From Amphiscolops sp. MND2022 (taxonomy: Eukaryota), in contig OZ076409.1 of the NCBI GenBank assembly GCA_964187785.1, forward strand, positions 73,534,001-73,598,000: a DNA stretch of 64,000 nucleotides. Direction: 5' to 3'. This document shows positions 1-64,000 of the stretch, in pieces. The notes beneath the pieces were generated by a model. The model saw only the letters and a list, made by a program, of their open reading frames with translations. It was not told the DNA's origin and did no database searches. A program made the translations under genes and the position numbers. Every line of letters begins with the position of its first letter. Position 1 is the stretch's first letter.

Positions 1-690
1 TGAAGAGAAAAATGCCGCTTAGAACGACTCTTTATCGTATCTTGACGTTAACGTATGGGGCTTTGAATGAGAGCTTGATAAGAGGTCGAGAAGTCAAAGT
101 GTGTAAATGGAACGTATGTCTCGTCGAAAACTCATCGGAATACATTATATGAACCCCAATTGTCCTCAATTACAGTTGCCTAGTGCAACAACGTCTTTCA
201 GGGACATTTTACCCATTTTCTTAAGAGTCAAAATTATTTTTAAATTCAGTTAGCAAAAAACACTTGAGTACATTCTCATCTGTCCCCAGCGGATGAGATG
301 AGAATGTTCCTGCTAAAAGCCAGGTACTACGGCCCACTTTTGTTTTAATGCGACGCATTCCCTGCTTTAGCACATATATATTTTTATTTCTCCTGATTTT
401 TTGTACACACTGTAAATTGTTATTATAAAATTCTTGTCATTACGTTACATAAATTTACAACCATAAAACGTTATCGTCAACGCCAAATACATTTATACGC
501 CCACCATTCCCAAGGTATGTCGAGGCATACCTTTCGATTACGTATGTCAAAACGCAAACGCGATAAAAAGTGTTGAATTACAGAAACGCTGACAAACAAT
601 TTTAACTAATTGACACATGGTAGGTTTTTATATGGAACTTACACATCACTGACATTTCACAACCTTGCAGCTGACGAACACATACGAACA

Positions 691-787
691 TCAACGCCCA
701 CCGTCCGTGGGCATGCCGAGGCATGCCCTTCGACGACGTATGCCAATTTTTTTTCTATCTACACCCAATTGCGGTAGCAGCTAGGTG
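691..787 (+). repeat. Representative unit 3' end/junction: 51-nt conserved core (691-741) with hairpin GGGCATGCC-GA-GGCATGCCC (709-728), variable tail (742-780), CTAGGTG (781-787)
   Basis: Read directly; present at all 37 junctions. A GC-rich hairpin followed by CTRR is the established Helitron 3'-end signature, although the spacing here is longer than usual. Confidence 0.92.
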
Positions 788-1753
788 GCCGGAAATTTTT
801 TTTTTCAGCAAAATCTTTGCCATTGGGGGAGGGGCCCCGGATGGCCAGTAGTACGGGATAGCTTCCTACCAAATCCAGGCGGAAAAAACGTGATTTTGGA
901 AACTAGCCGTCAGAATTTGCTCAAATTTTGCATACGGCTTCCTATAACAATCCTAAGAACTAATCCCTACTGGCATTTTGCCCAAAAAACGCAAAAAGTT
1001 GGTCAAAATCTTAGTTTTTTGGTCAAAAAATGGCGTTTTTTCGAAAAAATTTTTTTTCAGAGACAATTACTCGTAACTGGTTCACCCAGCGCAAAAACGC
1101 CTAGCTGATTTATTGTTGGGCACTTCATGAGGAGTGCGTATACAAATTTTCGTCCAAATCGGATGAAAGTTGATTGAGAAATAACAGAAAATTTGAGGCA
1201 TTTTTTTGGAAATTTGTGAAATCCCAGTCTATCTCTGCCGTTTTTTGCCCAGATTTTTTTCCAGACACTCTCCTAAAGACCTCCCCTGGCCGGTTTACCT
1301 CCCAGCAAAACCATTTGGCCCTAAATACGGAGTTTCAGCGTTCTAGCATTCCCGGGCGAAAAGTTGTGGGACTTAGAAAAAATTTTTGGAAACGCAAAAT
1401 GTGTAAAGTCAACTTCAGGCCTCCCAAAGTCAAGAAACTTCCACACAACTAGTATTGCAAGTGAATGCATGTAGAAAGTACGTGAATAGACAAGGAAAAT
1501 GGGCTATAGAACGACTCTGTAGCTTAACTTGACGTTGACTTATGACATTTTGAGTGTGAGCGTCCTATAGGATTTTAATGTCAAAAATGAGATTTTGTAA
1601 GTCATGAGTCATCAAAAACTCATCGGAATACGTTCAATCATCCCCATAGCTGTTCAATCACCGATGTTTAGTAGAGCAACGCCATTATATGTCTTTGGAC
1701 CCATTTTAAAAATTTTCCTTACCGTCTTATTCGTCCGATATCACGAAACAGTT

Positions 1754-1799
1754 GAGTACATTCCATCTTCCCCCTTGTGGGGGAGATGAGAATGTACTC
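1754..1799 (+). repeat. Representative long subterminal hairpin, type 1 (GAGTACATTC-CATCTCCC...GGGAGATG-A-GAATGTACTC)
   Basis: Imperfect ~18-20-bp inverted repeat. It lies about 180-240 nt upstream of the core hairpin in ~1.28-kb units; in long units it lies a similar distance upstream of the degenerate duplicate core. Confidence 0.88.
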
Positions 1800-4625
1800 G
1801 CCAAAGACCTGATACAATGACCCATATTGGTTTTTATTTGACTTTTCTCACAATATTGCACACGGATAGCTGTGTTTGGTAAAAGTTTTCCTTTGCACCA
1901 TGTCTCCAGAAGCAAAACCACTTCTTTAGCTTACTACTTCTACTCAAACATCACTAACGTCAACGCCACATACTCGCATCAACGCCCACCGTCCGTGGGC
2001 ATGCCGAGGCATGCCCTTCGACGACGTATGCCAAATAGCGCCGCAGGGCGCCCCCAATTTCCGCTAGGTGCCGGGATTTCTATTCGATAAAGTATGTGGC
2101 GCGCCTTGGGTAGGGTCCCTTGCGCGCTCTTGGGTATGGTGTTCACCAGCTAGGAAACAGGGGTCGATTTTTCGGGATCTCCTAAACTAGCCACACGATT
2201 TGGCTGAAATTTGGCACACGTACCCCCCTCGGCACGGTGAAGATGATTTCCTACTGACGTTTTTCCCGCAAAATTTTTTTTGTTGTCCAAAATAACGGTT
2301 TTTGGGGGAAAATTTTGAACTTTTTTTAAATTTCATCTTATATCTCGCCACCGGTTTACGCTAGCGCTTCAAAACCCTGCTAAAGAAAGCTTGCAAACTG
2401 TCTCAGGAATGCGGTGTGAAATTTTCAGCTCAATCGGACTCAAACTCAGGGAGATATAGCGTTTTTCCGGAGCGGGGGGGTTTCATTTTTCTAACGGTCC
2501 AGCTTATCTTAGCCATTTTTTCGGAAATGTGCTCGCCTAAAGACCTCCCCTGGCCGGTTTTATTCCCAGCAAAACCATTTGACCCTAAATACGGAGTTTC
2601 AGCGTTCCAGCATTCCCGGGCGAAAAGTTGTGGGACTTAGAAAATTTCAAAAATTTTCAAAAATTTTTTTTTCCGTTTTCCGCCCTCCCCCCCTAGGGGA
2701 AAAGACCCCCCAACCAGTAATTTGAGTGAATTCATGTGGAAAGGCCATGTTTAGAGGAGAAAAATCCCGTTTAAATTGTGTTTTTATCTTTATTCAACGT
2801 TGACTTATGACGTTTTGAACGTGATGTTTGGAGGTGTGAAGCACGTGAAAAGTAAACGTTATGAGTATTTATCTGATCTGAAAGCCATTGAGATGCAACC
2901 TGTTTTGCTCAAAACGTAATTCATATCAGTTTGGTAGTCAATCAACACCCTTTGTTGTCATTTGACATCTTTTTTTGTTGATATAAGGAAAAATTTCGTG
3001 TATTTATTCATTTTTTTCTCATCAAATAACTTGAAACAGTTGAGTACATTCCATCCCCCCCTTCACGGGGGAGATGAGAATGTACTCGCAAAAAGCCCCG
3101 AACTACGGCCCTTACCTTCCTGAGCTACGCAGTATAAAGATTGCATATTTGTTCCGACATTTTGATAGAGTTATATCTTGGTAATCTGTCTGGGTATGCA
3201 GAAAAACCAGCACGTGCTTTTTTATACCAAGTTGCTCACAACGACATTTATTTTATATCAACGCCCCCATATTTATCAACGCCCCCCGTCCGTGGGCATG
3301 CCGAGGCATGCCCTTCGACGACGTATACTAAAATATGTTCGAGCGCGTTAGCCTAGGTGCCGGGATTACTATTCGATAAGGAATTTTGCGCGGTTGGGTA
3401 GGGCCCCGTGAGCGCGCCAGGGGATAGTGTTAGAACAACAAGGATTTGGGCATCAGTTGGGAGCGATTTTCTAAACTATCCGTACGATTTTGCTGAAATT
3501 TGGCACGAAGCTTCCTTGGAACATTCTAAGAACAAATCCCTACTGGCGTTTTGCTGGGAAAAATCAAAAAGTTGGTCAAAAATGCGATTTTCCGACAAAA
3601 TTTTGGGGTAAAATTTTTTTGAAACGTTATATCTCGCCACAGGGTCACGCTAGCGCCTCGCAACCTATGATCGTGTTTTGTTGGGCGTTGTCTGTAGAAC
3701 ACGTATGCCAAATTTGGTGGCGATCGGACTTAAACTCAGGGAGATATAGCGATTTTTTAGGTGCATTTTTTGACATTTTTTGCATTTGCCGATTTATCTC
3801 TGCCGTTTTTGCTCAAATTTTTTTTGAGACACTCTCCTAAAGACCTCCCCTGGCCGGTTTACCTCCCAGAAAAACCATTTGGCCCTAAATACGAAGTTTC
3901 AGCGTTCTAGCATTCCCGGGCAAAAAGTTGTGGGACTTAGAATAGTTTTTATGGTAACGCAAAATGTGTAAAGTCAACTTCAGGCCTCCCAAAGTCAAAG
4001 AACTTCCACACAACTAGGATTGCAAGTGGGTGCATGTGGAAAGTACTCGGATAGACGAGAAAAATGAGCTATAGAACGACTCTGTAGCTTAACCTGACGT
4101 TGACTTATGACAATTTTAGTGTGAGCTTGCTATTTGGTGTAAAAATTCAAATGATGAAAATCGAAGCTAAGTCTCATCCAAAACTCATCGGAATACGTTC
4201 AATGCATCCCAAAGCGGATTAATTCGAGATGTTTAGTGCAGCAACACCATTCAAGACCATTTGACCCATTTTTATAAGTTTTGACAACGTATTATTCATA
4301 CGAGAGCACGAAACAGTTGAGTACATTCCATCTCCCTTTCGGGGGAGATGAGAATGTACTCGCTAAAGTCCAGGTACTACAGCCCATATTTGCTTTTATG
4401 CGACGCTCTTATGCTAGTGCGCATACTTTTTAATCGTTTAACTGAATTTTCTTCTGTCTGCACTTTGACTTTGACTTGACATATAGTGAACGTTTTGTCT
4501 TACAACTTACAAATGAGTAACGTCAACGCCCCATCCTTGCATCAACGCCCACCGTCCGTGGGCATGCCGAGGCATGCCCTTCGACGACGTATGCCAAGAT
4601 ATATCCCAAGCGCGGTAGCAGCTAG

Positions 4626-5905
4626 GTGCCGGGATTTCTATTCGATAAAGTAAGTTGCGCGGTTGGGTAGGGCCCCGTGAGCGCGCCCGTGTCTGTGTTT
4701 TTTGAACCTGAATTTGCGGGTGCCAAAATAGACGATCTCCTAAACTATCCATACGATTTGGCTCAAATTTGGCATACGGGTTCCTGAGACAGATATAAGA
4801 ACTAATTCCTACTGGCGTTTTGCCCGGAAAATTTTTTTTGTTGCGCAAACTTGAAATTTTTGACAAAAAAATGCGATTTTTTTTGAAAAAATTTTTTTGA
4901 GAGGCCATATCTTTTTTCAGGGTGCCCGGAGCGGGACGCGTTAAACTGATTATAAACTCTACGGTTCATGGGCTGTACGGGGAACCTATTTTTGTTGGAA
5001 TCCGACTTGTAGATTTTGAGATATATTATCAAATTTGGGTGTTTTTTTTCCAATTTTTCGAAAAACCTGGTTTATCTCTGCCGTTTTTTGCCCAGATTTT
5101 TTTCTAGACCCTCTCCTAAAGGCCTCCCCTGGCCGGATTACGTCCCAGCAAAACCATTTGGCCCTAAATACGAAGTTTCAGCGTTCTAGCATTCTCGGGC
5201 GAAAAGTTGTGGGACTTAGAAAAATTTTTTTTTAAACGCAAAATGTGTAAAGTCAACTTCAGGCCTCCCAAAGTCAAGGAACTTCCACACAACTAGGATT
5301 GCAAGTGGATGCATGTGGAAAGTGCTTGAATAGACGAGGAAAATGAGCTATTATAAAACTCTGTAGCTTAACTTGACGTTGACTTATGACAATTTTAGTG
5401 TGAGCTTGCTATGTAAGAAAAAATTTCAAAAATTGAAAATCGAAGCTAAGTCTCATCCAAAACTCATCGGAATACTTTCAATCCATTCCAAAGCGGTTTA
5501 CTTCCAGCTATAGACTGCAGCAACACTATTCAAGACCATTGTACCCCTTTATATTAGTTTTGACATTGTATTATTCATCCGAGAGCACAAAGCAGTTGAG
5601 TACATTCCATCTCCCTTTCGTGGGAGATGAGAATGTACTCGCTAAAGAACAGGTACTACAGCCAATTTTTGTATTTATGCGAAGCCATTCTATGCTATTG
5701 CACATAACAACTATGCTATTGACTTAATTTTGCCTACACTTTGCTATGACATATGCTAAACGTTTGGTCCTTACAACAACATACACATGACTAACGTCAA
5801 CACCACATACTGTTACCAACGCCCACCGTCCGTGGGCATGCCGAGGCATGCCCTTCGACGACGTATGCCAAATACCTTCCAGCGACGCTCGCGCTCCCCG
5901 GCTAG
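4626..5905 (+). mobile_element. Non-autonomous cassette family Q (near-identical copies at 19991-21269 and 29108-30384)
   Basis: Same head (GTGCCGGGATTTCTATTCGATAAAGTAAG), body and tail (GCCAAATACCTTCCAGCGACGCTCGCGCTCCCCGG-CTAG) at three non-adjacent positions. Confidence 0.8.
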
Positions 5906-8900
5906 GTGCCGGGATTTCCATTCGATAAGGAATTCTGCGCGTGTGGGTAGGGCCCCTGGCGCGCTCCTGTGTTTTCGGTTTTCCTACTCCTAAATAGACC
6001 CCCTAAATTCCGGGATCTCCTAAACTATCCATACGATTTGGCTGAAATTTGGCACACGTACCCCCCTCGGCACGGTGAAGATGATTTCCTACTGACGTTT
6101 TTCCCGCTAAACATTTTTTGTTGACCAAAATAACGGTTTTTGGGGTAAAATTTTCAACTTTTTTTAAATTTCATCTTATATCTCGCCACGGGTGCTCGCT
6201 AGCGCTTCCAAACCTTGCTGACGAAAGTTTGCAAACTGTCTCAGGAAGGCTGTGTGAAAATTTCAGCTCAATCGGACTTAAACTCGAGGAGATATAGCGT
6301 TTTTCCGGAGCGGGGGGTTTCATTTTTCTAACGGTCCAGCTTATCTTTGCCATTTTTTCGAAAATGCACTCGCCTAAAGGCCTCCCCTGGCCGGTTTTAT
6401 TCCCAGCAAAACCATTCGGCCCTAAATACGGAGTTTCAGCGTTCCGGCATTCTCGGGCGAAAAGTTGTGGGACTTAGAAAATTTCAAAAATTTTCAAAAA
6501 ATTTTTTTTTCGTTATTTGGGCCCCCAAAGTGGGGGAAAAGACCCCCCAACCAGTAATTCAAGTGAATGCATGTGGAAAGGCCATGTTTAGAGGAGAAAA
6601 ATGCCGTTTAGAACGTCTTTTTATCTTGGCTCAACGTTGACTTATGACGTTTTGAAGGTGATGTTTGGAGGTGTAAAGCAAGTGAATAGTAAACGTTATG
6701 AGTATTTATCTGATCTGAAAGCCATTGAGATGCAATATGATTGCTCAAAACGTAATTCATTGCAGTTTGGCAATCAATCAACACCCTTTGTTGTCGTTTG
6801 ACATACTTTTTTGTTGTTAAAATAAAAAATTTTGTGTATTTATTCATTTTTTCTCATCAAATAACTTGGAACAGTTGAGTACATTCCATCCCCCCCTTCC
6901 GGGGGAGATGAGAATGTACTCGCAAAAAGCACCGAACTACGGCCCTTACCTTCCCGAGCTACGCAGTATAAGGATTACATATTGGTTCCGACATTTTCAT
7001 AGAGTTATATCTTGGTAATCTGTCTGGATATGCCGAAAAATCAGCACGTGCCTTTTAATACCAAGTTGCTCACAACGACAATTATTTTATATCAACGCCC
7101 CCATATTTATCAACGCCCCCCGTCCGTGGGCATGCCGAGGCATGCCCTTCGACGACGTATACCAAGATATACATAAGCGCGGTAGCAGCTAGGTGGCCGG
7201 AAATTTTTTTTTCATCAAAATCTTTGCCAGTAGTACGGGATAGCTTCCTACCAAATCCAGATGGAAAAAACGTGATTTCGGAAACTAGCCGTCAGAATTT
7301 GCTCAAATTTTGCATACGGCTTCCTATAACAATCCTAAGAACTAATCCCTACTGGCATTTTGCCCAAAAAACGCAAAAAGTTGGTCAAAATCTTAGTTTT
7401 TTGGTCAAAAAATGGCGTTTTTTCGAAAAAAAAATTTTTCAGAGACAATTACTCGTAACTGGTTCACCCAGCGCAAAAACGCCTAGCTGATTTATTGTCG
7501 GGCACTTCATCAGGAGTACGTATACAAATTTTCGTCCAAATCGGATAAAAATTGATTGAGAAATAACTGAAAATTTGAGGCATTTTTTTGGAAATTTTTG
7601 AAATCCCAGTCTATCTCTGCCGTTTTTTGCCCAGATTTTTTTCCAGACACTTTCCTAAAGACCTCCCCTGGCCGGTTTACCTCCCAGCAAAACCATTTGG
7701 CCCTAAATACAGAGTTTCAGCGTTCTAGCATTCCCGGGCGAAAAGATGTAGGACTTAGAAAAAATTCAAAAATTTTCAAAATTTTTTTTTTGCGTTTCCT
7801 GGCCCCCCAATGAAGGGGAACGACCCCCCAACTAGGATTTTTGGTGAATCCATGTGAAAAGGCCTTGTTTAGTGGAGCAAATTGCCGTTCAGAGCGACTT
7901 TTTATCTTAACTTGACGTTGACCTCTGTCGTTTTGAATTTGATATCAGTATGTGTTGAGCATGTGAAAAGTTCACGATTTCAATTGTTCTCCCGTGTTCA
8001 AGCCATTGAGATACAAGCGGTAGTGATCAAAATGTGATTTATCGCAATTTGGTGGTGTTTTTGGTGTATTTTGATTCTTTTAAATAAAAAGTTGTTCTTT
8101 CTATATTTGGTGTATTGATTCAAATTAACAAGAAACAGTTGAGTACATTTCATCTCCCCCCTTGTGGGGGAGATGAGGATGTACCCGCTAAATGACACGC
8201 ACAATGGCCCAATTTTATTTTTATGCGACGTTTTCTAGGCTTTTGCGCAAGCCCACTAAAATTTAGACTGGTTTCCTTTTCTTTTACTCCAAAATTTTCC
8301 GTACTAACCACCTTACGCACCACCAGCTCAACGTAATATCTGTAACGTCAACGCCACATACTCGCATCAACGCCCACCGTCCGTGGGCATGCCGAGGCAT
8401 GCCCTTCGACGACGTATGCCAAATAGCGCCACAGGGCGCAAACTTGTCCGCTAGGTGCCGGGATTTCTATTCGATAAAGTATGTGGCGCGTGTGGGTAGG
8501 GCCCCTGGCGCGCTCTTGGGTATGGTGTTCACCAGCTAGGAAATAGGGGTCGATTTTTCGGGATCTCCTAAACTAGCCACACGATTTGGCTGAAATTTGG
8601 CACACGTACCCCCCTCGGCACGGTGAAGATGATTTCCTACTGACGTTTTGCTCGCAAAATTTTTTTTGTTGTCCAAAATAACGGTTTTTGGTGGAAAATT
8701 TTGAACTTTTTTTAAATTTCATCTTATATCTCGCCACGGGTTTACGCTAGCGCTTCAAAACCCTGCTAAAGAAAGCTTGCAAACTGTCTCAGGAATGCGG
8801 TCTGAAATTTTCAGCACAATCGGACTTAAACTCAAGGAGATATAGCGTTTTTCCGGAGCGGGGGGGTTTCATTTTTCTAACGGTCCAGCTTATCTTAGCC

Positions 8901-11900
8901 ATTTTTTCGAAAATGTACTCGCCTAAAGACCTCCCCTGGCCGGTTTTATTCCCAGCAAAACCATTTGGCCCTAAATACGGAGTTTCAGCGTTCCAGCATT
9001 CCCGGGCGAAAAGTTGTGGGACTTAGAAAAATTCAAAAATTTTCAAAATTTTTTTTTTCGGTTTTCCGCCCTCCCCCCGAGGGGAAAAGACCCCCCAACC
9101 AGTAATTTGAGTGAATTCATGTGGAAAGGCCATGTTTAGAGGAGAAAAATCCCGTTTAAATCGTCTTTTTATCTTTATTCAACGTTGACTTATGACGTTT
9201 TGAAGGTGATGTTTGGAAGGTGTGAAGCACGTGAAAAGTAAACGTTATGAGTATTTATCTGATCTGAAAGCCATTGAGATGCAATCTGTTTTGCTCAAAA
9301 CGTAATTCATATCCGTTTGGTAGTCATACAACACCCTTTGTTGTCATTTTACATCTTTTTTGTTGATATAAGAAAAAATTTTGAGTATTTATTCATTTTT
9401 TTCTCATCAAATAACTTGAAACAGTTGAGTACATTCCATCCCCCCTTCACGGGGGAGATGAGAATGTACTCGCAAAAAGCCCCAAACTACGGCCCTTACC
9501 TTCCTGAGCTACGCAGTATAAAGATTGCATATTGGTTCCGATATTTTGATAGAGTTATATCTTGGTAATCTGTCTGGGTATGCAGAAAAACCAGCACGTG
9601 CTTTTTTATACCAAGTTGCTCACAACGACATTTATTTTATATCAACGCCCCCATATTTATCAACGCCCCCCGTCCGTGGGCATGCCGAGGCATGCCCTTC
9701 GACGACGTATACCAAGATATGTTCGAGCGCGTTAGCCTAGGTGTATTTTTACACAAAGGGGGATGTTGCGCGTGTGGGGAGGGTCCCTGACGCGCTCCCG
9801 GGATTTCGGATTTTTTAACCTTTACGTACCCATCAAAAATTTTGGGATCTCGAAAACTAGCCGTACGATTTGGCTGAAATTTGGCACACGTACCCCCCTC
9901 GGCACGGTGAAGATGATTCCCTACTGACGTTTTTCCCGCTAAACATTTTTTGTTGACCAAAATAACGGTTTTTGGGGTAAAATTTTCAACTTTTTTTAAA
10001 TTTCATCTTTTATCTCGCCACGGGTACACGCTAGCGCTTCCAAACCTTGCTGACGAAACCTTGCAAACTGTCTCAGGAATGCTGTGTGAAATTTTCAGCT
10101 CAATCGGACTTGAACTCGAGGAGATATAGCGTTTTTCCGGAGCGGGGGGGTTTCATTTTTCTAACGGTCCAGCTTATCTTTGCCATTTTTTCGAAAATGC
10201 ACTCGCCTAAAGGCCTCCCCTGGCCGGTTTTACTCCCAGCAAAACCATTTGGCCCTAAATACGGAGTTTCAGCGTTCCAGCATTCCCGGGCGAAAAGTTG
10301 TGGGACTTAGAAAATTTCAAAAATTTTCAAAAATTTTTTTTTTCGTTATTTGGGCCCCCAAAGTGGGGGAAAAGACCCCCCAACCAGTAAAGCAAGTGAA
10401 TGCATGTGCAAAGCCCTTGTTTGGACGAGAAAAATGCCGTTTAAAACGTCTTTTTATCTTGGCTCAACGTTGACTTATGACGTTTTGAAGGTGTCCGTTA
10501 GATACAGAAAATTGATATTTTGAGTATTTATCCCATCTGAAAGCCATTGAGATACATGTTTTGCTCAAAACGTGTTTCATTGCAGTTCCGCTGTCCATTG
10601 ACACCCTTTGATGTCTTTTGACGTAATTTTCTTTTCTATAATAACAATTTTTCTGTGTATTTATTCATTTTTTTCTCATCAAATAACTTGAAACAGTTGA
10701 GTACATTCCATCTCCCTTCCCGGGGGAGATGAGAATGTACTCGCTAAAGGTCAGGAACTACGGTCTATATCTTCCACAACACAAAAGCAATTGAAAATTG
10801 TTTCAGTTTGTCGCAGAAAACTTTTCTTTTTGCACTCAGTGACTCGGCAAAGTGAGCGATTTTGACCCATATTGAATCTTACTTTACCACAACTCATCTC
10901 TAACGTCAACGCCCCCCACACACATCAACGCCCCCCGTCCGTGGGCATGCCGAGGCATGCCCTTCGACGACGTATAACAAAATATATTCGAACGCGGTAG
11001 CCGCTAGGTGCCGGGATTTTCTATTCGACAAGTTTGCGCGCCTTGGGGAGGGTCCCTTTGCGCGCTTTAAGATCCAGGTGTTTCCAACTCCTAAACGGGC
11101 ATGTGATTTCGACGATCTCCTAAACTAGCCATACGATTTGGCTGAAATTTGGCACACGTACCCCCCTCGGCACGGTGAAGATGATTCCCTACTGACGTTT
11201 TTCCCGCTAAACATTTTTTGTTGACCAAAATAACGGTTTTTGGGGTAAATTTTTCAACTTTTTTTAAATTTCATCTTATATCTCGCCACGGGTACACGCT
11301 AGCGCTTCCAAACCTTGCTGACGAAACCTTGCAAACTGTCTCAGGAATGCTGTGTGAAATTTTCAGCTCAATCGGACTTAAACTCGAGGAGATATAGCGT
11401 TTTTCCGGAGCGGGGGGGTTTCATTTTTCTAACGGTCCAGCTTATCTTTGCCATTTTTTCGAAAATGCACTCGCCTAAAGGCCTCCCCTGGCCGGTTTTA
11501 TTCCCAACAAAACCATTTGGCCCTAAATACGGAGTTTCAGCGTTCCAGCATTCCCGGGCGAAAAGTTGTGGGACTTAGAAAAGTTCAAAAATTTTCAAAA
11601 AAAAATTTTTCCGTTGTTTGGGCCCTCAAAGTGGGGGAAAAGACCCCCCAACCAGTAAAGCAAGTGAATGCATGTGGAAAGCCCTTGTTTAGACGAGAAA
11701 AATGCCGTTTAGAACGTCTTTTTATCTTAACTTGACATTGACTTTTGTCGTTTTGAAGGTGACCGTTAGATACGGAAAATTGATGTTTTGAGTATTTATC
11801 CCATCTGAAAGCCATTGAGATACAACATGTTTTGCTCAAAACGTGTTTCATTGCAGTTTCGCTGTCCATTATCACCCTTTGGTGTCTTTTCACGTAATTT

Positions 11901-33010: not shown

Positions 33011-33028
33011 TTTTATTTATTTTTTCAG
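33011..33028 (+). promoter_or_regulatory. Probable 3' splice acceptor (cis or trans) just before the first ATG of the large ORF
   Basis: T-rich tract TTTTATTTATTTTTTCAG|G ends 4 nt before ATG 33033; inferred from the spliceosomal consensus only. Confidence 0.5.
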
Positions 33029-33032
33029 GGTT

Positions 33033-40031: not shown

Positions 40032-40042
40032 ATATATTTCTG

Positions 40043-40084
40043 CGCTTGCCCGGATCGCGCAGTGATCCAAGGGCAAGCGTCTAG
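40043..40084 (+). other. GC-rich hairpin followed by CTAG, 11 nt after the stop codon
   Basis: CGCTTGCCC-GGATC-gcgcagt-GATCC-aa-GGGCAAGCG, then T-CTAG. A possible poly(A) signal ATTAAA lies at 40169-40174. Confidence 0.7.
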
Positions 40085-51633: not shown

Positions 51634-54600
51634 GTGGCCGGAAATTTTTTTTTCTTCTCAAATCTTTGCCGCTGGGGGAGGGGCCCCTGGCGGCTGCTGT
51701 TCGGTTTTACTACCTACCAAAACCTGCTTTTTTTTTCACGATCTCGAGAACCACCCGTACGATTTTCCTGAAAATTTGCATACAGGCTTAGAATCAAATC
51801 CTAAGAACTATTTCCTACTGGCGTTTTCCCGAATTTTTTCAAAAAGTTGGTCAAAAACGCAACAAAAGTTGCCAATGGACATAAAAAACGCAACTTTTCG
51901 ACTTTTAGGGCTCATAACTTTTTCCAGAGTGCCCGGAGCGACCCGTGTGCATCGGACACTTTTGTTCAGCATTCTAGGAAGAGTGCGTGGGCAAATTTTC
52001 GTTTAAATCGGACAAAAATTGACTGAGAAATTAACGCAAATTTTGGTGCATTTTTTGCGAATACTAGTCTATCTCTGCCATTTTCGCCCAAAATTTTTCC
52101 CAGAGCCTTTACAGGAGGCAACCCCTGCCCAAATTTCTGCCGAGCAAACCCATTTGGCCCTAAATACGAGGTTTCAGCGTTCTAGCATTTCCGCGCAAAA
52201 AGTTGTGGGACTTAGAAATTTTTCAAAAAAATGCAAAAATTGTAAAAAGTAACTTCCGGCGTCCCAAAGTCAAGAAACTTTCACACAACTAGTATTTCAA
52301 GTGAATGCATGTGGAAAGTACTTGGATAGACGAGAAAAATGAGCTATAGAACGACTCTCTAGCTTAATCTGACGTTGACTTATGACATTTTGAGTGTGAG
52401 CATCCTATAGGATTTTAATGTCAAAAATGAGATTTTGTAAGTCATGTCTCATCAAAAACTCGTCGGAATACGTTCAATCATCCCCATAGCTGTTCAATTA
52501 CTGTGACTTAGTAGAGCAACGCCATTTAATGTCCTTGGACCCATTTTGAAAATTTTCGTTATCGTCTTATTCGTCCGATATCCCGAAACAGTTGAGTACA
52601 TTCCATCTCTCCCTTAAGGGGGAGATGAGAATGTACTCGCCAAACACCTGACACAATGGCCCATATTGGTTTTTATTTGACCTTTCTCACGATATTACAC
52701 ACGGATAGCTGTGTTTGGTAAAAGTTTTCCATTGCACCATGTCTCCAGAAGCTAAACCACTTCTTTAGCCTACTACTTCTACTCAAACATCACTAACGTC
52801 AACGCCACATACTCGCATCAACGCCCACCGTCCGTGGGCATGCCGAGGCATGCCCTTCGACGACGTATGCCAAATAGCGCCACCTGGCGCCCCCAATTTC
52901 CGCTAGGTGGTCGGGTATTTTTTTTTACTCGTAGATGGCGTTTGCGAGGCTTTGGGGAGGGCCCCGTGCCGAGCCTGTACCGAAAATTACCACATACAAG
53001 AAGTGTCCGATTTAATCGTGATCTCAAAAACTAACCGTTAGAATTCTCTGAAATTTTGCATGTGGCCCCTGATCAATGAGTAATGAAAAAGTGTAGGAGT
53101 GACGGTTGCTGAAAAACTTGTCTTTGTTGCACTTTTTGCGCAATTTTTGTCGCATTGTTGCGTTTTTTATGTCATTTTCGACTTTTCAAGCAAAAAACTC
53201 ATAGATGCTTTGTTCCTAGCGTATCAAGTGTGGAGCACGAAAAGTTGCAGCATCTTCCATTACGTATGCTGGGAAAATTTGGTTGCCCTCGGATTACCCC
53301 CCACAGAGATAGAGGGGTGCATCCGGGTATTTTTGACCCCTAAATTTGGGAAATTGCTAATTTTCGTAATAAAGCCGTAGATTTAGCGCGTGCACACCCT
53401 GCTGAAGATTTGTTAGGCATTTTGAGATAGATCCGATGACATGCGTTGAGTTCACCCCCATCACCCCCTTGACCGGAAATGAACGTTTTTGTGCACTTTC
53501 AGACCGGAAGTCTCCATTTTCACCGGTAAGGAGGCATTGTACGAGCAACTAGCAGGATATCAAAAGTGAAGTATAACCTGGGGTCAACTTAATGACCACG
53601 TGTTGTCCAGTCATGGGTTTCGCTATGACCGGAAATGGGCTTAAAACCCCCTTTTGGTAGTATTTTTTATCAATTTTCCTTGTGCTTGGTCCACATTCAA
53701 GTTGCGTAAGTCAGTTGAACCAGTGAGAGCATAAAATATATATTCACTGCGTAGTCGTAACTGACACTGCCAGATACCGGAAGTAACCCCCTGTGACCGG
53801 AAGAGGTCAATTTTGACCGGAAATGGTCCAAAAAGTAGCGTAAATGCAGTTTTCAATGCTTTTTAAGGTCAAGTTATTAGTATTTTTCAATTTGAATGCT
53901 TTTTTCCACGCAAAAAGCTAACATCGTTGCATGTTTTGCTGAAGATCGGAAAAGTGATCACCATTATCACCCCCGATAGCCTTTCAAGTTGACCTTTGGT
54001 CAATCTTGAAGGCTATCTGTTCTGATAACGAAAAATAGTGGAATTTTGTTTCCTCCTTTCTCTTGATATTTTTCCTTCAAGTCAATTTGTCAAAAGAAAG
54101 ACATTTGTTCAACTGAGTGATCTGAAACCTGTCCAGAGGTGTCACCCGGACGAATACCATTTCAAGCTGAAGTACACAAATCAGGGTAGTATTAGACATC
54201 ACACACTCCTACCAACTCCCACCGTCTGTGGGCATGCCGAGGCATGCCCTTCGACGACGTATGCCAAATAGCGCTACAGGGCGCCCACAGTTGCTAGGTG
54301 GTCGGGGTGTTTCCCAGCCGTTTTGGCCGCGCGGGGAGGGACCCGTTCAGCGGCCCAGGTAATTAAGATTTTGTCATTCAAAAAATGACCCATCCGGAAA
54401 GCGATTTCGAAACCCACCCGTAGGATCCCTCTGAATTTTTGCATGCACCTCCGTATAACAGATGTAAGTTAAAGTCAGCAAGAGCGTTTTCAGTTCTAAA
54501 CGGGGAATGTTGACCAAAAAGCGCAATTTATGTCCAAAAAAATGCAATTTTTCGACTTTTTTATTTTTGACGGCCAACAGCTCTTTTCCAGATGCCCGCC

Positions 54601-57600
54601 CAAGTCATAAATCGGAGTAAGCTTTTGTTGGGCACTTCGTGAAGAATCTTTAGGGTGATTTTCGTTTCATTCCTATTTCCTGACGTTGACTTATGGTTGG
54701 GTGAAAAAACGCAACATTTGTTACAAAAAGTGCTTTTGGTACTCAAGGGCCCATAACTCGTGACATAATCAATTGAGCAAGTTCGTGTATACTTACGATT
54801 TTGTTGCCTATCTATAGGAGAACAAACAAGCAGTGACAAAACTTTCTGTGGGAAGACGTCAAAAAAAGATATCACAGGTTTTATAATCAATAAAACAGTG
54901 TTTTTCGGTTGTCGTGGAAAAAATGTAAAAGGGTGGCATTTTTCGGCTGTTTAAGGTAGCGGGTATTTTATTGCTGTTATTAACTCACCTCTAGTATTCA
55001 TTTACTTGGATGATTTTCAATTTTGATAAATTACATGATAAACTTCATTTTTTGCGTCACCAATATTGACACCCACGATTACAGTCATTTTTTTCGCGTT
55101 CACGTTTTTGAGTGGATATAACTTTTTTCCAGTGCGTTTTACGGTCATCATCCAGGAGCACAAAATTGTTGGCCGGCTTAAGCAGAAAATATATGGTAAG
55201 TTTAGAGTCATTTGAAACTTTTTTGAAATGTCCAGAGATGCACAAATTTACAGTTTTTTTGCCCACAAAACACTATTTTACGAAACCCAAAACTTTTTGC
55301 CAAAAAAGTCAAACTTTGTCCACACAACTTAGATTGCAAGTGAATGCATGCGGAGAGTACTTGAAATGGTGGGAAAAATGAGCTATAGAACGCTCATTTA
55401 CGACAACGTGACGTGGACTTAGGACATTTTGAAAAAGTACGAAAAAAAAGAACAACGGTTCCAAAACAATCAGTTTGTAGTAAATGGCCAATAACTCCAT
55501 ACACAACCTTCCGCGCAAGCTAGTGTCCAAGTACGTTTTTGTTACCCGTGAACAGCGCAACAAATAAGTAAAAGTAAAACTTTATGTAGAGAATCGTCGG
55601 AGAAAGAAATAACGGGATTTTTTGTCACATTTAAGAGACAAAATTGAAAAATTAGTCTATTCCTGGCATTTTACCTAAACTTTTTCGACAGTACACATAC
55701 AGGAGGTAAAATTCGCCCAATACCATGCCTAACAAAACTATTTGATCCATTGGCCGCAATTTGAGCGTTCCACCTTTCCCCAGTCATAAATTATGGGACT
55801 TCGAAATTTTTCAACTTTCCATTTTTCAACAAAATTTCAAATTCAGGCCTCCCAAAGGTAAGAAAGTTCCACACAACTAGGATTGCAAGTGGTTGCATGT
55901 GGAAAGTGCTCGAACCGACGAGAAAAATGGGCTTTAGAACGTCTCTCTATCGTAACCTGACGTTGACTTATGATGTTTTGAATGTGAGACTGCTACGTGC
56001 TCGAGAAGTGTAAGTGGAACATATGTCTCGTCGAAAACTCATCGGAATACATCCAATGAACCCAAATCACCCTCAATTGCAGTTTCCTAGTGCAACAACG
56101 TCTGTCAAGGACCTTTTTTGATAAGAGTCGAACTTATTATTAAATTCAGTTAGCAAGAAACACTTGAGTACATTCTCATCTCTCCCCATCGGGGGAGATG
56201 AGAATGTACTTGCAAATTGGCCTCATTTGTTTTCATGCGAGGCATTCTGTGCTTTGGCACACTTAGATAACTTTGTTTTGTCTGTTTTTTTTGCATATAC
56301 TTTAAATTGACATTAGAAATTTGCCGACTTTACTTTACGTAAAATTAACTTTCTACCATGCACCTTTAACGTCAAAGCCACATAAAATTAGACTCCTATC
56401 GTCGAAAAACATACCGCGGCATTTATTTTGATGACATATGCCGAAACACAAACGTGAACAAAATTGATGAGATTCAGAAACAGTGACAAACAATTTTTAC
56501 TATTTGACATAAGGTAGGTTTTTATATGGAACTTACACATCACTGATATTTAATAACAATCCAGCTGACGCACACATACCAACATCAACGCCCACCGTCT
56601 GTAGGCATGCCGAGGCATGGCTTTCGACGACGTATGCCTAATCCACTCCCCGACGCCCCCACTCCGCCCCTAGGTGGTCGGGGTGTTTCCCAGCCGTTTT
56701 GGCCGCGCGGGGAGGGACCCGTTCAGCGGCCCAGGTAATTAAGATTTTGTCATTCAAAAAATGACCCATCCGGAAAGCGATTTCGAAACCCACCCGTAGG
56801 ATCCCTCTGAATTTTTGCATGCACCTCCGTATAACAGATGTAAGTTAAAGTCAGCAAGAGCGTTTTCAGTTCTAAACGGGGAATGTTGACCAAAAAGCGC
56901 AATTTATGTCCAAAAAAATGCAATTTTTCGACTTTTTTATTTTTGACGGCCAACAGCTCTTTTCCAGATGCCCGCCCAAGTCATAAATCGGAGTAAGCTT
57001 TTGTTGGGCACTTCGTGAAGAATCTTTAGGGTGATTTTCGTTTCATTCCTATTTCCTGACGTTGACTTATGGTTGGGTGAAAAAACGCAACATTTGTTAC
57101 AAAAAGTGCTTTTGGTACTCAAGGGCCCATAACTCGTGACATAATCAATTGAGCAAGTTCGTGTATACTTACGATTTTGTTGCCTATCTATAGGAGAACA
57201 AACAAGCAGTGACAAAACTTTCTGTGGGAAGACGTCAAAAAAAGATATCACAGGTTTTATAATCAATAAAACAGTGTTTTTCGGTTGTCGTGGAAAAAAT
57301 GTAAAAGGGTGGCATTTTTCGGCTGTTTAAGGTAGCGGGTATTTTATTGCTGTTATTAACTCACCTCTAGTATTCATTTACTTGGATGATTTTCAATTTT
57401 GATAAATTACATGATAAACTTCATTTTTTGCGTCACCAATATTGACACCCACGATTACAGTCATTTTTTTCGCGTTCACGTTTTTGAGTGGATATAACTT
57501 TTTTCCAGTGCGTTTTACGGTCATCATCCAGGAGCACAAAATTGTTGGCCGGCTTAAGCAGAAAATATATGGTAAGTTTAGAGTCATTTGAAACGTTTTT

Positions 57601-60600
57601 GAAATGTCCAGAGATGCACAAATTTACAGTTTTTTTGCCCACAAAACACTATTTTACGAAACCCAAAACTTTTTGCCAAAAAAGTCAAACTTTGTCCACA
57701 CAACTTAGATTGCAAGTGAATGCATGCGGAGAGTACTTGAAATGGTGGGAAAAATGAGCTATAGAACGCTCATTTACGACAACGTGACGTGGACTTAGGA
57801 CATTTTGAAAAAGTACGAAAAAAAAGAACAACGGTTCCAAAACAATCAGTTTGTAGTAAATGGCCAATAACTCCATACACAACCTTCCGCGCAAGCTAGT
57901 GTCCAAGTACGTTTTTGTTACCCGTGAACAGCGCAACAAATAAGTAAAAGTAAAACTTTATGTAGAGAATCGTCGGAGAAAGAAATAACGGGATTTTTTG
58001 TCACATTTAAGAGACAAAATTGAAAAATTAGTCTATTCCTGGCATTTTACCTAAACTTTTTCGACAGTACACATACAGGAGGTAAAATTCGCCCAATACC
58101 ATGCCTAACAAAACTATTTGATCCATTGGCCGCAATTTGAGCGTTCCACCTTTCCCCAGTCATAAATTATGGGACTTCGAAATTTTTCAAAATTTCCATT
58201 TTTCAACAAAATTTCAAATTCAGGCCTCCCAAAGGTAAGAAAGTTCCACACAACTAGGATTGCAAGTGGTTGCATGTGGAAAGTGCTCGAACCGACGAGA
58301 AAAATGGGCTTTAGAACGTCTCTCTATCGTAACCTGACGTTGACTTATGATGTTTTGAATGTGAGACTGCTACGTGCTCGAGAAGTGTAAGTGGAACATA
58401 TGTCTCGTTGAAAACTCATCGGAATACATTCAATGAACCCAATCACCCTAAATTGCAGTTTCCTAGTGCAACAACGTCTGTCAAGGACCTTTTTTGATAA
58501 GAGTCGAAATTATTATTAAATTCAGTTAGCAAGAAACACTTGAGTACATTCTCATCTCTCCCCATCGGGGGAGATGAGAATGTACTTGCTAAAACGGCTT
58601 CTTTGTTTTCATGCGATGGATTCTGTGCCTTGCCACACATATAACTTTGTTTTGTGTGACCTTGCGTATATAATTTGACTTGTCATAATAAATTTTTTCT
58701 CGTAAATTTACGTAAATCAACAATGCATCTACAATGCACCTTCAACGTCAAAGTCAAATAAATATAGCTGGCCACCGTCCGTAGGCAGAGCAAGGCATGC
58801 TTTTTGACGACGTATGCCGAAACACAAACGCAAACAAAACTGCTGAAAATCAGAAACAGTGACCAACAATTTTGACTGTTTGACATATGGTAGGTTTTTA
58901 TATGGAATTTACACATCACTGATATTTCACAACATTTCAGCTGACACCCACCTACCACTATCAACGCGCACCGTCAGTGGGCATGCCGAGGCATGCCCTT
59001 CGACGACGTATGGCTAACACCTTCAGCGACGCCCCCGCGCTCCCCCTAGGTGGTCGGGGTGTGTTTCCCAGCCAATTTTGCCGCGCGGGGAGGGACCCGT
59101 TCAGCGGCCCAGGTCATTATTTTTTTTACATTAAAAAAAACGATACCCCGGAAAGCGATTTCGAAACCCACCCGTAGGATCCCTCTGAATTTTTGCATAC
59201 ACCTCCGTATAACAGATGTAAGAAAAAGTCAGCAAGGGCGTTTTCAATTCTAAATGGGGAATGTTGACCAAAAAGCGCAATTTATGTCCAAAAAAATGCA
59301 ATTTTCCGACTTTTTTATTTTTGACGGCCCACAGCTCTTTTCCAGATGCCCGCCCAAGTCATAAACCGGAGTAAACTTTTGTTGGGCACTTCGTGAAGAA
59401 TCTTTAGGGTGATTTTCGTTTCAATCCTATTTCCTGACGTTGACTTCTATGTGACGCAATTAGGTGCAAAATTGGGTGAAAAAACGCAATTTTGGTACTC
59501 AAGGGCTCATAACTCGTTACAGAGTCAATTTAGCAAGTTGATTTATATCGACGTTTTTGTTGCCTACTTATAGGCAAACAATTAAGCAGAAACAAAATTT
59601 TCTGTGAGACATCGTCAAAAAAAGATATCACTTGTTTAAAAAACGCAAAAAATGTAGTTTTTTGGATTTCGTGAAAAAAATATAAAAAGGTGGCGTCTAC
59701 CGGCTGTTACAGGTAGCGGGTATTTTATTGCAGTTAATAACTCACCTTTAGTAGTCATTTACTTGGATGGTTTTTGATTTTGAGAAAATGCATGATAACT
59801 TTCATTTTTTGCCTCACCAATATTGACACCCACGACTACCGTCGATTTTTCGAGTTCACGTATTCAACTGGATATACTTTTTTTCCAGTGCGTTTTACGG
59901 TCCTCACACAGGAGTGCAAAAATGTTGCCCATCTTAAACAGAAGGCATATGGTGAGTTTAGAGTAATTTGAAAGGTTTTCGACATGTCCAGAGATGCACA
60001 AATTTACAGTTTTTTTGCCCACAAAACACTATTTTACGAAACCCAACACTTTTTGCCAAAAATGTGAAACTTCGTCCACACAACTTAGATTGCAAGTGGG
60101 TGCATGCGGAGAGTACTCGAAATAACGAGAAAAATGAGCTAACGAACGCTCATTTACGACAACTTGACGTGGACTTAAGACATTTTGAAAATCACAAAAA
60201 AAGGACAACGATTTCAAAACAATCAGTTTGTAGTAAATGGCCAATAACTCCATACACAACCCTCCGAGCAAGCTAGTGTCCAATTACGTTTTTATTACCT
60301 GTGAGCAATGCAACAAATAATCAAAAGTAAAAGTTTATGTAGAAAATCGTCGGGGAAAGAAATAACGGGATTTTATATCACATTTAAGTGACAAAATTCA
60401 AAAATTAGTCTATCCATGGCATTTTCCCTAATATTTTTCGACAATACGCACACACGGGGTAAAATCTGCCTAAAACTGTGCCTACTAATACTATTTGATC
60501 CATTGGCAGCAAATTGTGCGTTCTAGTTCTAGTTTTCCCATTCAAAAATTATGCGACTTCGAAAATTTTCAAAATTTTCATTTTTCAACAAAATTTCAAC

Positions 60601-61448
60601 TTCAGGCCTCCCGAAGGTAAGAAAAACCCACACAACTATGATTGCAAGTGAATGCATGTGGAAAGTACTTGAACAGACAAGAAAAATGGGCTATAGAACG
60701 TCTCTCTATCGTAACCTGACGTTGACTTATGATGTTTTGAATGTGAGATTGCTACAGGGTCGAGAAGTCAAAGTGTGTAAGTGGAACATATGTCTCGTCG
60801 AAAACTCATCGGAAAACTTTCAGTGAACCCCAAACACACTCAATTGCAGTTGCCTAGTGCAACAACGTCTTTTCAAGGACCTTTTACTTATTCTGAAAAG
60901 TGTCGAAATCATTATTAAATTCAGTTAGCAAGAAACACTTGAGTACATTCTCATCTCTCCCCATCGGGGGAGATGAGAATGTACTTGCTAAAACGGTCCC
61001 CTTTGTTTTCACGCGAGGCATTCTGTGCTTTGGCACATGAATACCTTTGTTATGTCTGACGTTTCGGATAAACGGTGACTTTTCATTAAATTTCCCGTCA
61101 TTACTTTACGTAACATAATCTTTCTACCATTCAACTTTAACTTCAAAGCCACATAAATTTAGACTCCTATCGTCGATAAACATACCGTGGCATGTTTTTC
61201 GATGACGTATGCCAAAACACAAACGCGAACAAAAGTGCTAAATTTCAGAAACAGTGACAAACAATTTTGACTGTTTGGTATAACATTTGGTAGGTTCTTA
61301 TATGGAACTTACTCATCACTGATATTTCACAACATTCCAGCTGACGCCCACATACCAACATTAACGTCCACCGTCCGTGGGCATGCCGAGGCATGCCCTT
61401 CGACGACGTATGGCAAATAATTTATGCGACACCCCCGCCCACCTCTAG

Positions 61449-63639
61449 GTGGAGGTTATTTTATAATAATTAAAGTGTTTTTTTCCGGAGTTTGTGGCTT
61501 TGGAAAAAACAAAAGGCGAGAAATTGGGCACTCCGGGCTGAACCGTATACACTCAAAATTCGCCCAATATTTATACGATCTCGAAACCCAGCCGTACGAT
61601 TTGGCTGAAAATTTGCATGCGGCTAAAAAATCAGATTCTAAGAACTATTTCCTGCTGACATTTTTTTGAAATTTTTGTGTACGTTTCCCCCCCGCCCCCT
61701 AAAGGGGTCAATTTTCCCCAATTTTGCACTTATGAGTCAAATTCTCAAAACTGGTGGATCTGAGCGTATTCCCAGCGGGGACAACTTTTAACAAGCGCTC
61801 TTCAGTAGACCTTTTTGACTTTTTACTTTGGTGGTAGGTTCACCCCCCAAGGAGGAAATGGCGTTTTTGTGACTTCCGGTCGAGACTTTTTTCACCCAAA
61901 AAATTGAAATAAGCCAGTTTTGAGCAGGAAGGAGTGGATTTGAAGTGTCTGTACCCTGCTAAAAATTTGTTGGGCTTGTAGCGATATATCTCATACCAAG
62001 TCTGGTTTTCATCCCCAAACCCCCCTTGAGACCAAAATTCAAACAAACATTTTACCTCTATTTGTCGTTTTTTTCACAAAATGTCGTCATTTCTATCGGC
62101 AAAGATTTGAATTAGGGGCTCCTAATAGCGTACCAAAGTTCAAGTACACTTGGAGTGCAATTGAGTGACCCTTTTTGGGCCTCTCGTGTGTTCGGCAATG
62201 ACCGGAAGTGGTATAAACCCCCCTTTTTTGACGTTTGTTGACCTTGAGACTCGCGCTTAGATGACGTTTGTGTCGCGCAAATCCTACAAACCAGTATTAG
62301 GATGACATGCTAGCCAACTAGAGAGCAATAAGGGAAACTATACTATACCGGAAGTAACCCCCTCTTGACCGGAAGTTGTCATTTTTGACCGGAAATGGTC
62401 CAAAACCTAGCGTGAAAGCAGTTTTTCATTGCTTTTAATGTCAACTTAATACTTTTTTCACTCTGCGCGAGCTTGCCTTCAGGTCCGTTAGTGTTGCCCG
62501 TGCACACTGCAACAAATATACATCTGTAAAGATTTGGCTATAATTTCGTCGGAGAGAGAAATAACGGATTTTTGTGATTTTTTTTCAAAAATATTAGTCT
62601 TTATCTGTCATTTTTACTCAACGTTATTGAACAGTAGAACCACAGGTGTTAGTCTCTGCACAAATATATGTCTAACAAAAGCACTTGTTCCATTGGTTGC
62701 AGTTTGAGCGATCTAGTTTTGCCTCGTCACAAGTTAGGGGACTTGAAAAACTTTCAAAATCTTTTCCGAACTTTTTTCTAAACGTCACGTCTCTCAAAGT
62801 TAAGAAACTTCCTCACAACTAGGACTGCAAGTGAATGCATGTGGTAAGACCTATAAATGGAGAGAAAAACTCCGTTTAGGACGTCTCTTTATCTTAACGT
62901 GACGCTAAGAGATGTTGCTTTGAATGTGAGTTTGATAATGCGTCGAGAAGTAAAAGCGTGTAAATGGAACCTTTGTCTCGATAAATACTCATTGCACAAC
63001 ACGCGATGAACCCCAATTACCCTCAGTTTCAGTTGTTTAGTACATCAACGTCTTCCAAAGACCTTTTATCTATTTTGAAAAGTGTCGAAATCAATATTGA
63101 TATCAGTTATCATGAAACACTTGAGTACATTCTCATCTCTCCCCATCGGGTGAGATGAGAATGTTCTTGCTAAAAGCCAGGTACTACGGCTCCCTTTTGT
63201 TTTAATACGATGCATTCTCTGCTTTAGCACATATATATTTTATTTCGCCTGATTGCTTGTATACTCTCTGACTTGTTGTTATAAATCTCTCGTCATTACT
63301 TTACATAAATATACAACCAAAAATCATTATCGTCAACGCCACATACATTTAGACGCCCACCATTCCGTAGGTATGTCGAGGCATACCTTTCGATTACGTA
63401 TGTCAAAACGCAAACGCGATAAAAAGTGCTGAAAGTCTGAAACAGTGACAAACAATTTAGACTATTTGACATATGGTAGGTTTTAATATGGGAGTTACAC
63501 ATCACTGACATTTCACATCATTCCAGCTGACGCCCACATACCAACATCAACGCCCACCGTCCGTGGGCATGCCGAGGCATGCCCTTCGACGACGTATGCC
63601 AATTTCTGCATATCTACACTCAATTGCGGTAGCAGCTAG
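61449..63639 (+). mobile_element. Non-autonomous cassette, 2191 bp; same family as the partial unit at 1-784
   Basis: The 3' ~780 bp align by eye with 1-784, including the degenerate core AGGTATGTCGAGGCATACCT and the tail TATCTACAC.CAATTGCGGTAGCAG-CTAG. Confidence 0.72.
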
Positions 63640-64000
63640 GTGGTCGGGTATTTTTTTTTACTCGTAGATGGCGTTTGCGAGGCTTTGGGGAGGGCCCCGT
63701 GCCGAGCCTGTACCGAAATTTACCACATACCAGAAGTGTCCGATTTAATCGAGATCTCAAAAACTAACCGTTAGAATTCTCTGATTTTTTGCATGTGGCC
63801 CCTAATCAATGAGTAATGAAAAAGTGTAGTAGTGACGGTTGCTGAAAAACTTGTCTTTGTTGCACTTTTTGCGCAATTTTTGTCGCATTGTTGCGTTTTT
63901 TATGTCATTTTCGACTTTTCAAGCAAAAAACTCATAGATACTTTGTTCCTAGCGTATCAAGTGTGGAGCACGAAAAGTTGCAGCATCTTCCATTACGTAT

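Follow-up and report, generated by a model that had tools for sequence, protein, structure and literature searches.

The window analysed here, 64,000 nucleotides of the 1.07-Gb genome of Amphiscolops sp. MND2022 (contig C1, OZ076409.1, positions 73,534,001-73,598,000), consists of transposon units lying head to tail, one of which encodes a protein with an HUH Rep domain, a PIF1 helicase and a GIY-YIG nuclease. The question raised by this locus is how units that share little beyond their ends came to be joined exactly at those ends. We consider it likely that they belong to a family of rolling-circle transposons (HUH Rep + PIF1 + GIY-YIG) that uses its own end-to-end junction as preferred target. 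The evidence that this rolling-circle variant targets itself is strong but indirect, and comes from sequence comparison.

Element ends, junctions and unit order

The motif CTAGGTG occurs 37 times on the + strand of the window and 0 times on the - strand, and these junctions bound 36 abutting units of 1262-2399 bp plus one unit of 12,045 bp. The array of co-oriented, abutting units described in the first-pass annotation of this DNA is real, and its layout is as follows (^ marks the joint).

1-64000, + strand: section of a head-to-tail array of rolling-circle elements, with partial units at 1-784 and 63640-64000
785-21269, + strand: 16 non-autonomous units of the 1.27-kb class (1262-1313 bp)
1268-1380, + strand: central block conserved among 1.27-kb units and also in some autonomous heads, shown for unit 1
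1751-1800, + strand: internal hairpin conserved in non-autonomous units, shown for unit 1 and found in 40 of 40 members of the non-redundant 1.27-kb set
21270-22673, + strand: non-autonomous unit of the 1.39-kb class; further ones at 42430-45210, 46482-49258 and 52907-54297
22674-30384, + strand: six units of the 1.27-kb class; further ones at 45211-46481 and 51634-52906
30381-30387, + strand: example junction CTAG^GTG (one of the 37), CTAG being the end of the left unit and GTG the start of the right one
30385-42429, + strand: autonomous element, 12,045 bp, GTG...CTAG
30417-30444, + strand: head stem-loop with fixed loop GGG-KAGGGN-CC, example; the stem varies by family, about 30-60 nt inside the 5' end
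42342-42392, + strand: 51-nt subterminal core with palindrome, example from the tail of the window's lineage; other lineages are without it
49259-63639, + strand: region with four 2.38-kb units (49259-51633, 54298-61448) and one 2.19-kb unit (61449-63639), in which the 1.27-kb body is duplicated internally

The elements begin with 5'-GTG and end with CTNG-3', and they are inserted directly after a host CTNG, usually before DT, without target duplication. GTG starts 227 of the 228 units in our library, which was cut by a junction pattern requiring GTG; the boundary is confirmed independently by empty sites. The 3' ends in this library are CTAG (210), CTGG (15), CTTG (2) and TTAG (1), and the variable base tracks the family of the left unit. 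A solo copy on C5 reads host CTCG ^ GTG...CTAG ^ AT host, and its paralogous empty sites read CTCG^AT in 4 of 4 cases, with neither duplication nor loss. A second solo copy, at CTTG^GT, belongs to a family whose own end is CTTG (locus L096); its site is empty in six of the seven paralogue loci fetched, the seventh giving no match. Empty-site tests were informative in three of four cases, the fourth (L111) having distant paralogues only. Searching for YG directly in front of a head yielded 41 matches at 30 loci, from which six array-junction variants, three chance matches and one duplicate were removed. In the 20 host-flanked heads, one of them nested in a unit, C stands at -4 in 18 and T at -3 in 19, and tails not followed by G have T at +2 in 27 of 29 cases. 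The host target is CTNG^DT, of which the junction CTAG^GTG is itself a perfect instance. As a side observation, unit 8 of the window (9737-9760) lacks 6 nt after GTG relative to its own family, either by slippage between GGTG repeats or by use of a second GTG as start.

The contiguous 260 kb around the window consist of units throughout (145 junctions, 144 units, five long open reading frames, ORFs). Genome-wide we estimate 8,000-9,000 junctions (3911 and 3193 matches, scaled by catch rates of 70/143 and 49/143), and host DNA holds about 5.6 million CTNG^DT and about 10^5 CTRGGTG sites (scaled from 232 and 5 in 44 kb). In one tail class, which accounts for 20 of the 143 sampled junctions and for which GV and GTGW followers were uncounted, 1649 copies are followed by GTGS, 29 by non-G and 14 by GTH; about 97% of the class adjoin another element's head, and the class is not mainly dispersed singly at host sites, an outcome that the first-pass annotation had named as contrary to its proposal. 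Because matching host sites vastly outnumber junctions, a short motif cannot explain this bias. Local hopping cannot explain it either, because the 144 units hold 286 internal CTNG^DT on the + strand and unit lengths still fall almost all into discrete classes. The distribution of internal CTAGGT is suggestive, with 0 on the + and 47 on the - strand in the 144 related units, and 1 versus 7 in nine autonomous units, these copies not being independent.

The order of units speaks in the same direction. At 95% identity the 144 units form 90 families, and young units that are nearly identical lie dispersed instead of piling up at a single point of entry. Within the core-bearing set, 88 pairs agree in their tail; 70 of these also agree in their own head and 5 in the next head (background 6% and 5%). 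The tail thus travels with its own unit while the next head is at background, so that reshuffling occurs at the junction; crossover at the core or inside units, which would keep a tail and the next head together, was rejected on this count. The two main lineages meet at 21 of the 143 junctions, and units sharing little beyond their ends are still joined exactly at CTNG^GTG. Changes in order involve single units and fall exactly at the junction. Taken together, empty sites, junction bias and unit-order statistics support the precise unit-by-unit insertion at the element's own junction that had been proposed from the window.

The ends of the array and its host site, which had been left to be found, were located at C1:70,454,838, where the left end sits in a long interspersed nuclear element (LINE) at CTAG^GT (9 of 11 paralogous matches), and at about 76,005,437, where a tail is flanked by host DNA; about 8% of this span was read directly, and interruptions are possible. 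Junctions on the + strand were present in 9 of 9 four-kb and 17 of 19 three-kb samples, the remaining two matching unit interiors. Uniform orientation without nesting, as first described, holds in the window, but outside it one head is nested within a unit (locus L093) and one reverse-strand tail lies in the large array (C1:72444504). Exact matches to a 31-nt piece of the core number 3911 in the genome, and the first 100 listed are nearly all clustered; the core marks only some lineages, however. Another array begins at C1 76.13 Mb, smaller ones lie at C1 3.5, 24, 29.5 and 38 Mb, and enzyme genes cluster also at C2 102-104 Mb and C3 2.4-3.9 Mb. Heterogeneity is also seen in small arrays at several host sites.

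The last unit of the 3.5-Mb array (locus L021, C1:3484000-3485390) appears degraded and a tail cannot be made out in it, which would fit a founder position of the 3'-most unit. Oppositely oriented arrays face each other at L022 (C1:23977199-23979716) and L083/L084, one pair across a 200-N gap, which possibly reflects an inversion or an assembly join.

Autonomous units and shared heads

The enzyme gene of the window and its motifs are located as follows.

33033-40031, + strand: transposase ORF, 2332 amino acids (aa), with Cys-rich N-terminus, HUH/Y2 Rep, PIF1 helicase and C-terminal GIY-YIG (SLX1-like)
36339-36377, + strand: Rep motif 2 (HUH), EFQSTKGNLPHIH
36882-36896, + strand: Rep motif 3 with two tyrosines (YIAKY)
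38247-38270, + strand: Walker A of the PIF1 helicase
39675-39890, + strand: GIY-YIG nuclease domain (FVY...YIG; Arg and Glu present)

Helitron_like_N, PIF1 and GIY-YIG all score above the Pfam cut-offs, Rep motifs 1-3 can be aligned with their Helitron counterparts, and SLX1 is matched by the nuclease (profile E 1e-9). Rep motif 2 exceeds the Q-x-R-G-x-x-HUH of sampled proteins from the Helitron groups HLE1 and HLE2 by at least two residues. A single-sequence structure prediction of the Rep region reached a predicted local distance difference test score (pLDDT) of 32.5 and was not used. Short T-rich tandem repeats with TTAGG-like units lie upstream of the ORF (31325-31403).

The single intact enzyme gene reported at first stands for the window, but not beyond it, given the five long ORFs of the 260 kb and at least 30 Rep matches in the array. 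A Rep-region search gave 117 matches in the genome, a lower bound since 114 of 482 candidates were scored; at least 34 of them fall in C1 70.5-76.5 Mb, all on the + strand and 30 within the large array, with 31-100% identity and most in open frames longer than 2000 aa. Dense clusters of matches are limited to C1, the end of C2 and the start of C3, and matches are sparse on other long contigs. Nine autonomous copies extracted in full measure 12-15.5 kb and are units with ends as in the array: each enzyme gene examined is itself a unit, and several lineages are present. The ratio of nonsynonymous to synonymous substitution rates (dN/dS) is 0.05-0.15 in the four computable pairs out of the six formed by four ORFs of one lineage. 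The window's autonomous element has a twin 174 kb downstream, 99.88% identical over 12,048 bp, whose right end is precise and abuts a different neighbour.

A second gene, encoding about 310-460 aa with conserved cysteines, is present in many autonomous units (e.g. L141:1461-2384 and L120:4032-5099); no Pfam family was found for it at cut-off. Its predicted structure (pLDDT 82) resembles OB-fold single-strand binders, namely LEF-3 (E 1.5e-5) and Teb1 OB-A (Z 9.9, root-mean-square deviation 3.9, 113 aligned), and the product may be an OB-fold protein. In the window's own autonomous unit the gene was not found by tblastn.

The common 51-nt core had been taken as the mark of all units. In the window it does precede 37 of 37 junctions, at a distance of 76-89 nt and with 0-4 mismatches, but it is lineage-specific, being present in only 82 of the 144 units of the 260 kb. 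What nearly all classes have in common instead is head homology over about 150-400 bp, including a stem-loop that lies 30-60 nt inside the 5' end; the 2.19-kb family is without the head loop. The loop stays fixed while the stem is rebuilt from different sequences (43 distinct heads, median z -2.0; 76 of 132 head variants matched the loop anchor used), and compensatory changes are seen in 3 of 7 pairs of the hairpin. The feature common to the lineages is this 5' hairpin with a fixed loop, not the 51-nt core. Elements whose proteins are 32% identical have first 700 bp that are 77-79% identical (shuffled 51-54%) and unrelated tails (43-49%): lineages have swapped heads, and each tail stays with its enzyme. 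These are the two lineages that meet at the 21 junctions mentioned above.

The description of the cassettes as hard to align fits the other size classes, e.g. the 1.39-kb class, which align with the 1.27-kb units only at the ends; the 1.27-kb units themselves are colinear homologues (63% median identity among 40 non-redundant ones, span 1261-1316 bp). Non-autonomous size classes are tight, at about 1.04, 1.27, 1.39, 2.0, 2.2 and 2.38 kb. In 139 of 139 short units of the 260 kb the longest ATG frame is below 150 aa, a test that does not reach spliced or RNA genes. Autonomous copies share with short units only the first ~775 bp and the tail, and the internal hairpin is not at the matching place, so that short units are not simple deletion products. 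Consensus folding of the 1.27-kb units recovers the head hairpin and the internal hairpin, the latter of which could be a second-strand origin, and gives weak or strand-dependent signals in the central block. An Rfam scan of window positions 700-6000 gave three matches, none at gathering score.

Construction of the arrays

Four other explanations of the arrays were weighed. The one that survives best, although we regard it as unlikely, is weak targeting followed by amplification: insertion at any CTNG^DT with occasional tandems, then satellite-like unequal crossover or gene conversion. Internal mosaics and lineage clustering (see below), the exchange of heads and the one microhomology fusion would suit it. 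It does not sit well with tails and next heads kept together only at background level, with repeated neighbour pairs at 1 observed versus 1.1 shuffled, or with units alike only at their ends yet joined exactly at CTNG^GTG, small arrays being heterogeneous too.

Read-through, in which the enzyme skips terminators and moves multi-unit blocks or rolls multimers, so that arrays are pasted blocks, appears improbable to us. One-ended transposition is known for IS91 (PMC13181058), read-through has been proposed for Helitron tandems (PMC5876387), 6 of 143 adjacent pairs are at least 95% identical, and the large array ends with one adjacent pair carrying the identical tail type. Multimers, however, predict identical neighbours, and only 1 of 143 adjacent pairs reaches 98%, on which ground identical-copy rolling-circle multimers were rejected, in line with the initial remark that read-through tandems do not fit. 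Pasted blocks predict common neighbours, and 35 unit pairs at 98% identity or above have a neighbour in common in 1 of 70 cases, a check that covered 260 kb only. Nor can read-through account for neighbours of different lineages.

We give very little credence to the idea that the arrays are a chromosomal structure maintained by the host, such as a centromere-like region or eliminated DNA, in which host selection preserves the units and transposition plays a secondary part. The multi-megabase size, the 1261-1316 bp length held at 63% median identity with conserved blocks, and precedents for Helitrons in special compartments (PMC13085455, PMC11934779) would agree with it. Against it, solo copies behave as ordinary insertions and enzyme matches are dense only in the few regions named above; a general centromere repeat was rejected since they are sparse on other long contigs. 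An assembly artefact is barely conceivable, for although the array is read from the assembly alone, it holds 90 families at 95% among 144 units, its elements leave clean empty sites, and the junction recurs in an independent contig.

Several observations nonetheless weigh against repeated insertion at the junction as the whole account. Tail segments differ in 12 of 60 head-alike pairs and heads in 22 of 123 tail-alike pairs, and this internal mosaicism shows that recombination also acts. Lineages cluster, with 35 class changes versus 76.7 +/- 5.5 after shuffling (54 versus 39.9 +/- 3.4 under local shuffles at a 0.8 threshold), which could also be obtained by local duplication. On its left side the downstream twin is fused to a truncated unit by way of a CGGT microhomology. 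The LINE at the left end of the large array is not resumed at the right end, so that the two ends are different host sites, and a single cleanly expanding insertion does not describe the array. The junction bias, measured in a single tail class, could be inflated by selection against insertions into host DNA. As to homologues in similar settings elsewhere, which the first-pass annotation had proposed to look for, 1 of 14 metagenome loci ends in an array junction and hairpin after a related gene (L120, an independent contig; its protein has 61% amino-acid identity to the nearest fetched relative), but in five other long metagenome loci (two distinct elements) the array junction was not found, and most of the remaining loci are short or end near the gene. 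Finally, all evidence is assembled sequence.

Under self-junction targeting, the explanation that we favour, the enzyme would nick at CTNG^GTG and the helicase would peel off one strand, which would close at the next CTNG to give a circle whose joint is the array junction. The strand would then pass into another junction, recognised through the common head hairpin and CTNG^GT, as the relaxase TrwC does into a second oriT; we infer that this junction-specific strand transfer is carried out by the HUH enzyme. A rare host insertion would found an array, and each further insertion would add one target, giving growth by positive feedback through which the elements would avoid genes. Autonomous units of several lineages would supply the enzyme, and short units would be their parasites. 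Judging only by its likeness to SLX1, the GIY-YIG domain most likely resolves a branched intermediate or cuts the second strand. The + strand, which fits the IS91/HLE1 tetranucleotide, is rather likely the moving strand; an origin located downstream of the gene and specific to the lineage would suit the - strand. We lean slightly towards the wider picture in which many lineages share the origin hairpin, swap origin modules and jointly build a transposon-only megabase domain, a self-made safe harbour.

Target choice of rolling-circle transposons is largely open, and here the target would be a short defined sequence plus a hairpin. Such targeting would be a further route to megabase tandem DNA, through repeated site-specific insertion and not through amplification of the satellite type, and it would let an element survive by serving as its own safe harbour. 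If true, enzyme and short junction would make a portable targeted-integration system for animal cells, and an HUH integrase with a defined landing site would be of interest for genome engineering.

Relation to known systems

The locus was at first called integron-like, and an array of common-ended units reshuffled at those ends does recall an integron. In integrons the tyrosine recombinase is fixed, the cassettes bear genes and enter at a single attI site, and a cassette promoter is present. Membership was rejected: HUH, PIF1 and GIY-YIG are the only enzyme domains in the window protein, which has no tyrosine recombinase; no single fixed enzyme gene lies by one entry site, the enzyme genes being units of several lineages; young units are scattered; and the cassettes carry no genes by the ATG-frame test. 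The term could be kept by analogy only. Construction by a single embedded enzyme, also proposed, does not agree with the many HUH-helicase genes, some only 30% identical.

The closest mechanistic precedent is TrwC of plasmid R388, a relaxase-helicase of the HUH Y2 type by which incoming DNA is integrated where a second copy of the enzyme's nick site lies (PMC3264647); it is a conjugative plasmid protein and no transposon, so that the likeness is mechanistic. IS91 targets CTTG, also CTCG, resembling its own terminal cleavage site CTCG, makes no duplication, and has subterminal palindromes and ori-ter circle joints (PMC13181058). It differs in being without a helicase (PMC10288648) and in moving the bottom strand, and self-built arrays are not described for it in the accessible parts of these papers. 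The IS91-like rule holds here: the target tetranucleotide resembles the element's own terminal cleavage site.

Helitron tandems are not new. Xiong is said to have reported them in plant centromeres in 2016. They are described from Xenopus, with 2-7 repeats (PMC12001565), from Hydractinia (PMC11934779) and from Fusarium/Metarhizium (PMC5148889); unlike the present arrays, they are described as one family or few copies. Paramecium Helitrons resemble the present family in lying outside HLE1/HLE2, in long ORFs under purifying selection and in strict orientation in a special compartment, but they end in CCAA and insert in telomeric repeats, and the main text of the paper does not contain 'GIY' (PMC13085455). 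Within the accessible literature, with Repbase, subscription journals and the HELIANO sequence tables outside its scope, neither the ends of this clade nor arrays of mixed, self-targeted units were found described. 'Unclassified' Helitron-like elements (HLEs) have been recorded in 19 genomes in a paper whose main text is without the word 'tandem' (PMC11417382), and the protein clade may already be catalogued among them.

A word-index protein search gave 34 relatives, one of them named (Styela clava XP_039262880.1, uncharacterized), and a 50%-identity library gave 324 representatives at E <= 1e-30, of which the best 150 are listed and which may include other Helitrons. The family is large and mostly unnamed, so that annotation tools probably miss it. 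No relative was confirmed in prokaryotic genomes, and IMG/VR gave one weak helicase match and two single pattern matches. Metagenome relatives at 27-30% identity (L122-L126) lie amid several other ORFs and 18-94-nt tandem repeats, with no junction motif. In a tree over 626 Rep + helicase columns, 21 family rows stand apart from two HLE1 and five HLE2 rows with support 100/99, the tree being unrooted and thinly sampled, with a long-branch warning and all HLE1/HLE2 rows from this genome; it used 28 of 38 prepared rows, partial, redundant and badly anchored ones being left out.

Helitrons in the broad sense share with the family the HUH Rep motifs 1, 2 and 3 (Y2), the fused PIF1 (SF1B) helicase and the lack of target-site duplication. 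As in HLE1 (Helraiser), the 3' end is usually CTAG or CTGG, satisfying CTRR, and an OB-fold accessory gene is present in many autonomous copies; the tail-to-head circle joint of Helraiser (PMC5876387, PMC11417382) has the structure of the array junction. The differences from HLE1 are a GTG instead of a TC start, a CTNG^DT instead of an A^T target, the shared hairpin near the 5' end, the fused GIY-YIG, the separate tree branch and heterogeneous arrays of thousands of units.

The target differs from the T^T of HLE2 (Helentron/Helitron2) as well, and short subterminal inverted repeats, an HLE2 trait, were not seen by eye, no formal search having been made. DUF6570 gave no match in the window protein or eight relatives, versus six of eight other Rep proteins tested from this genome. 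Ordinary HLE1 and DUF6570-bearing HLE2 elements are also present in the genome (L157-L167), and no array junction was found there. GIY-YIG has been reported in one HLE2 family, HelenSM92 of Sphagnum, which is described with short inverted repeats and TT^TT sites and was compared by description only (PMC11417382). A long transposase is common to HLE2 and the present family, as is OTU in some members: OTU or TPR domains stand N-terminal in some family proteins (P0011, P0027, P0033 and P0159).

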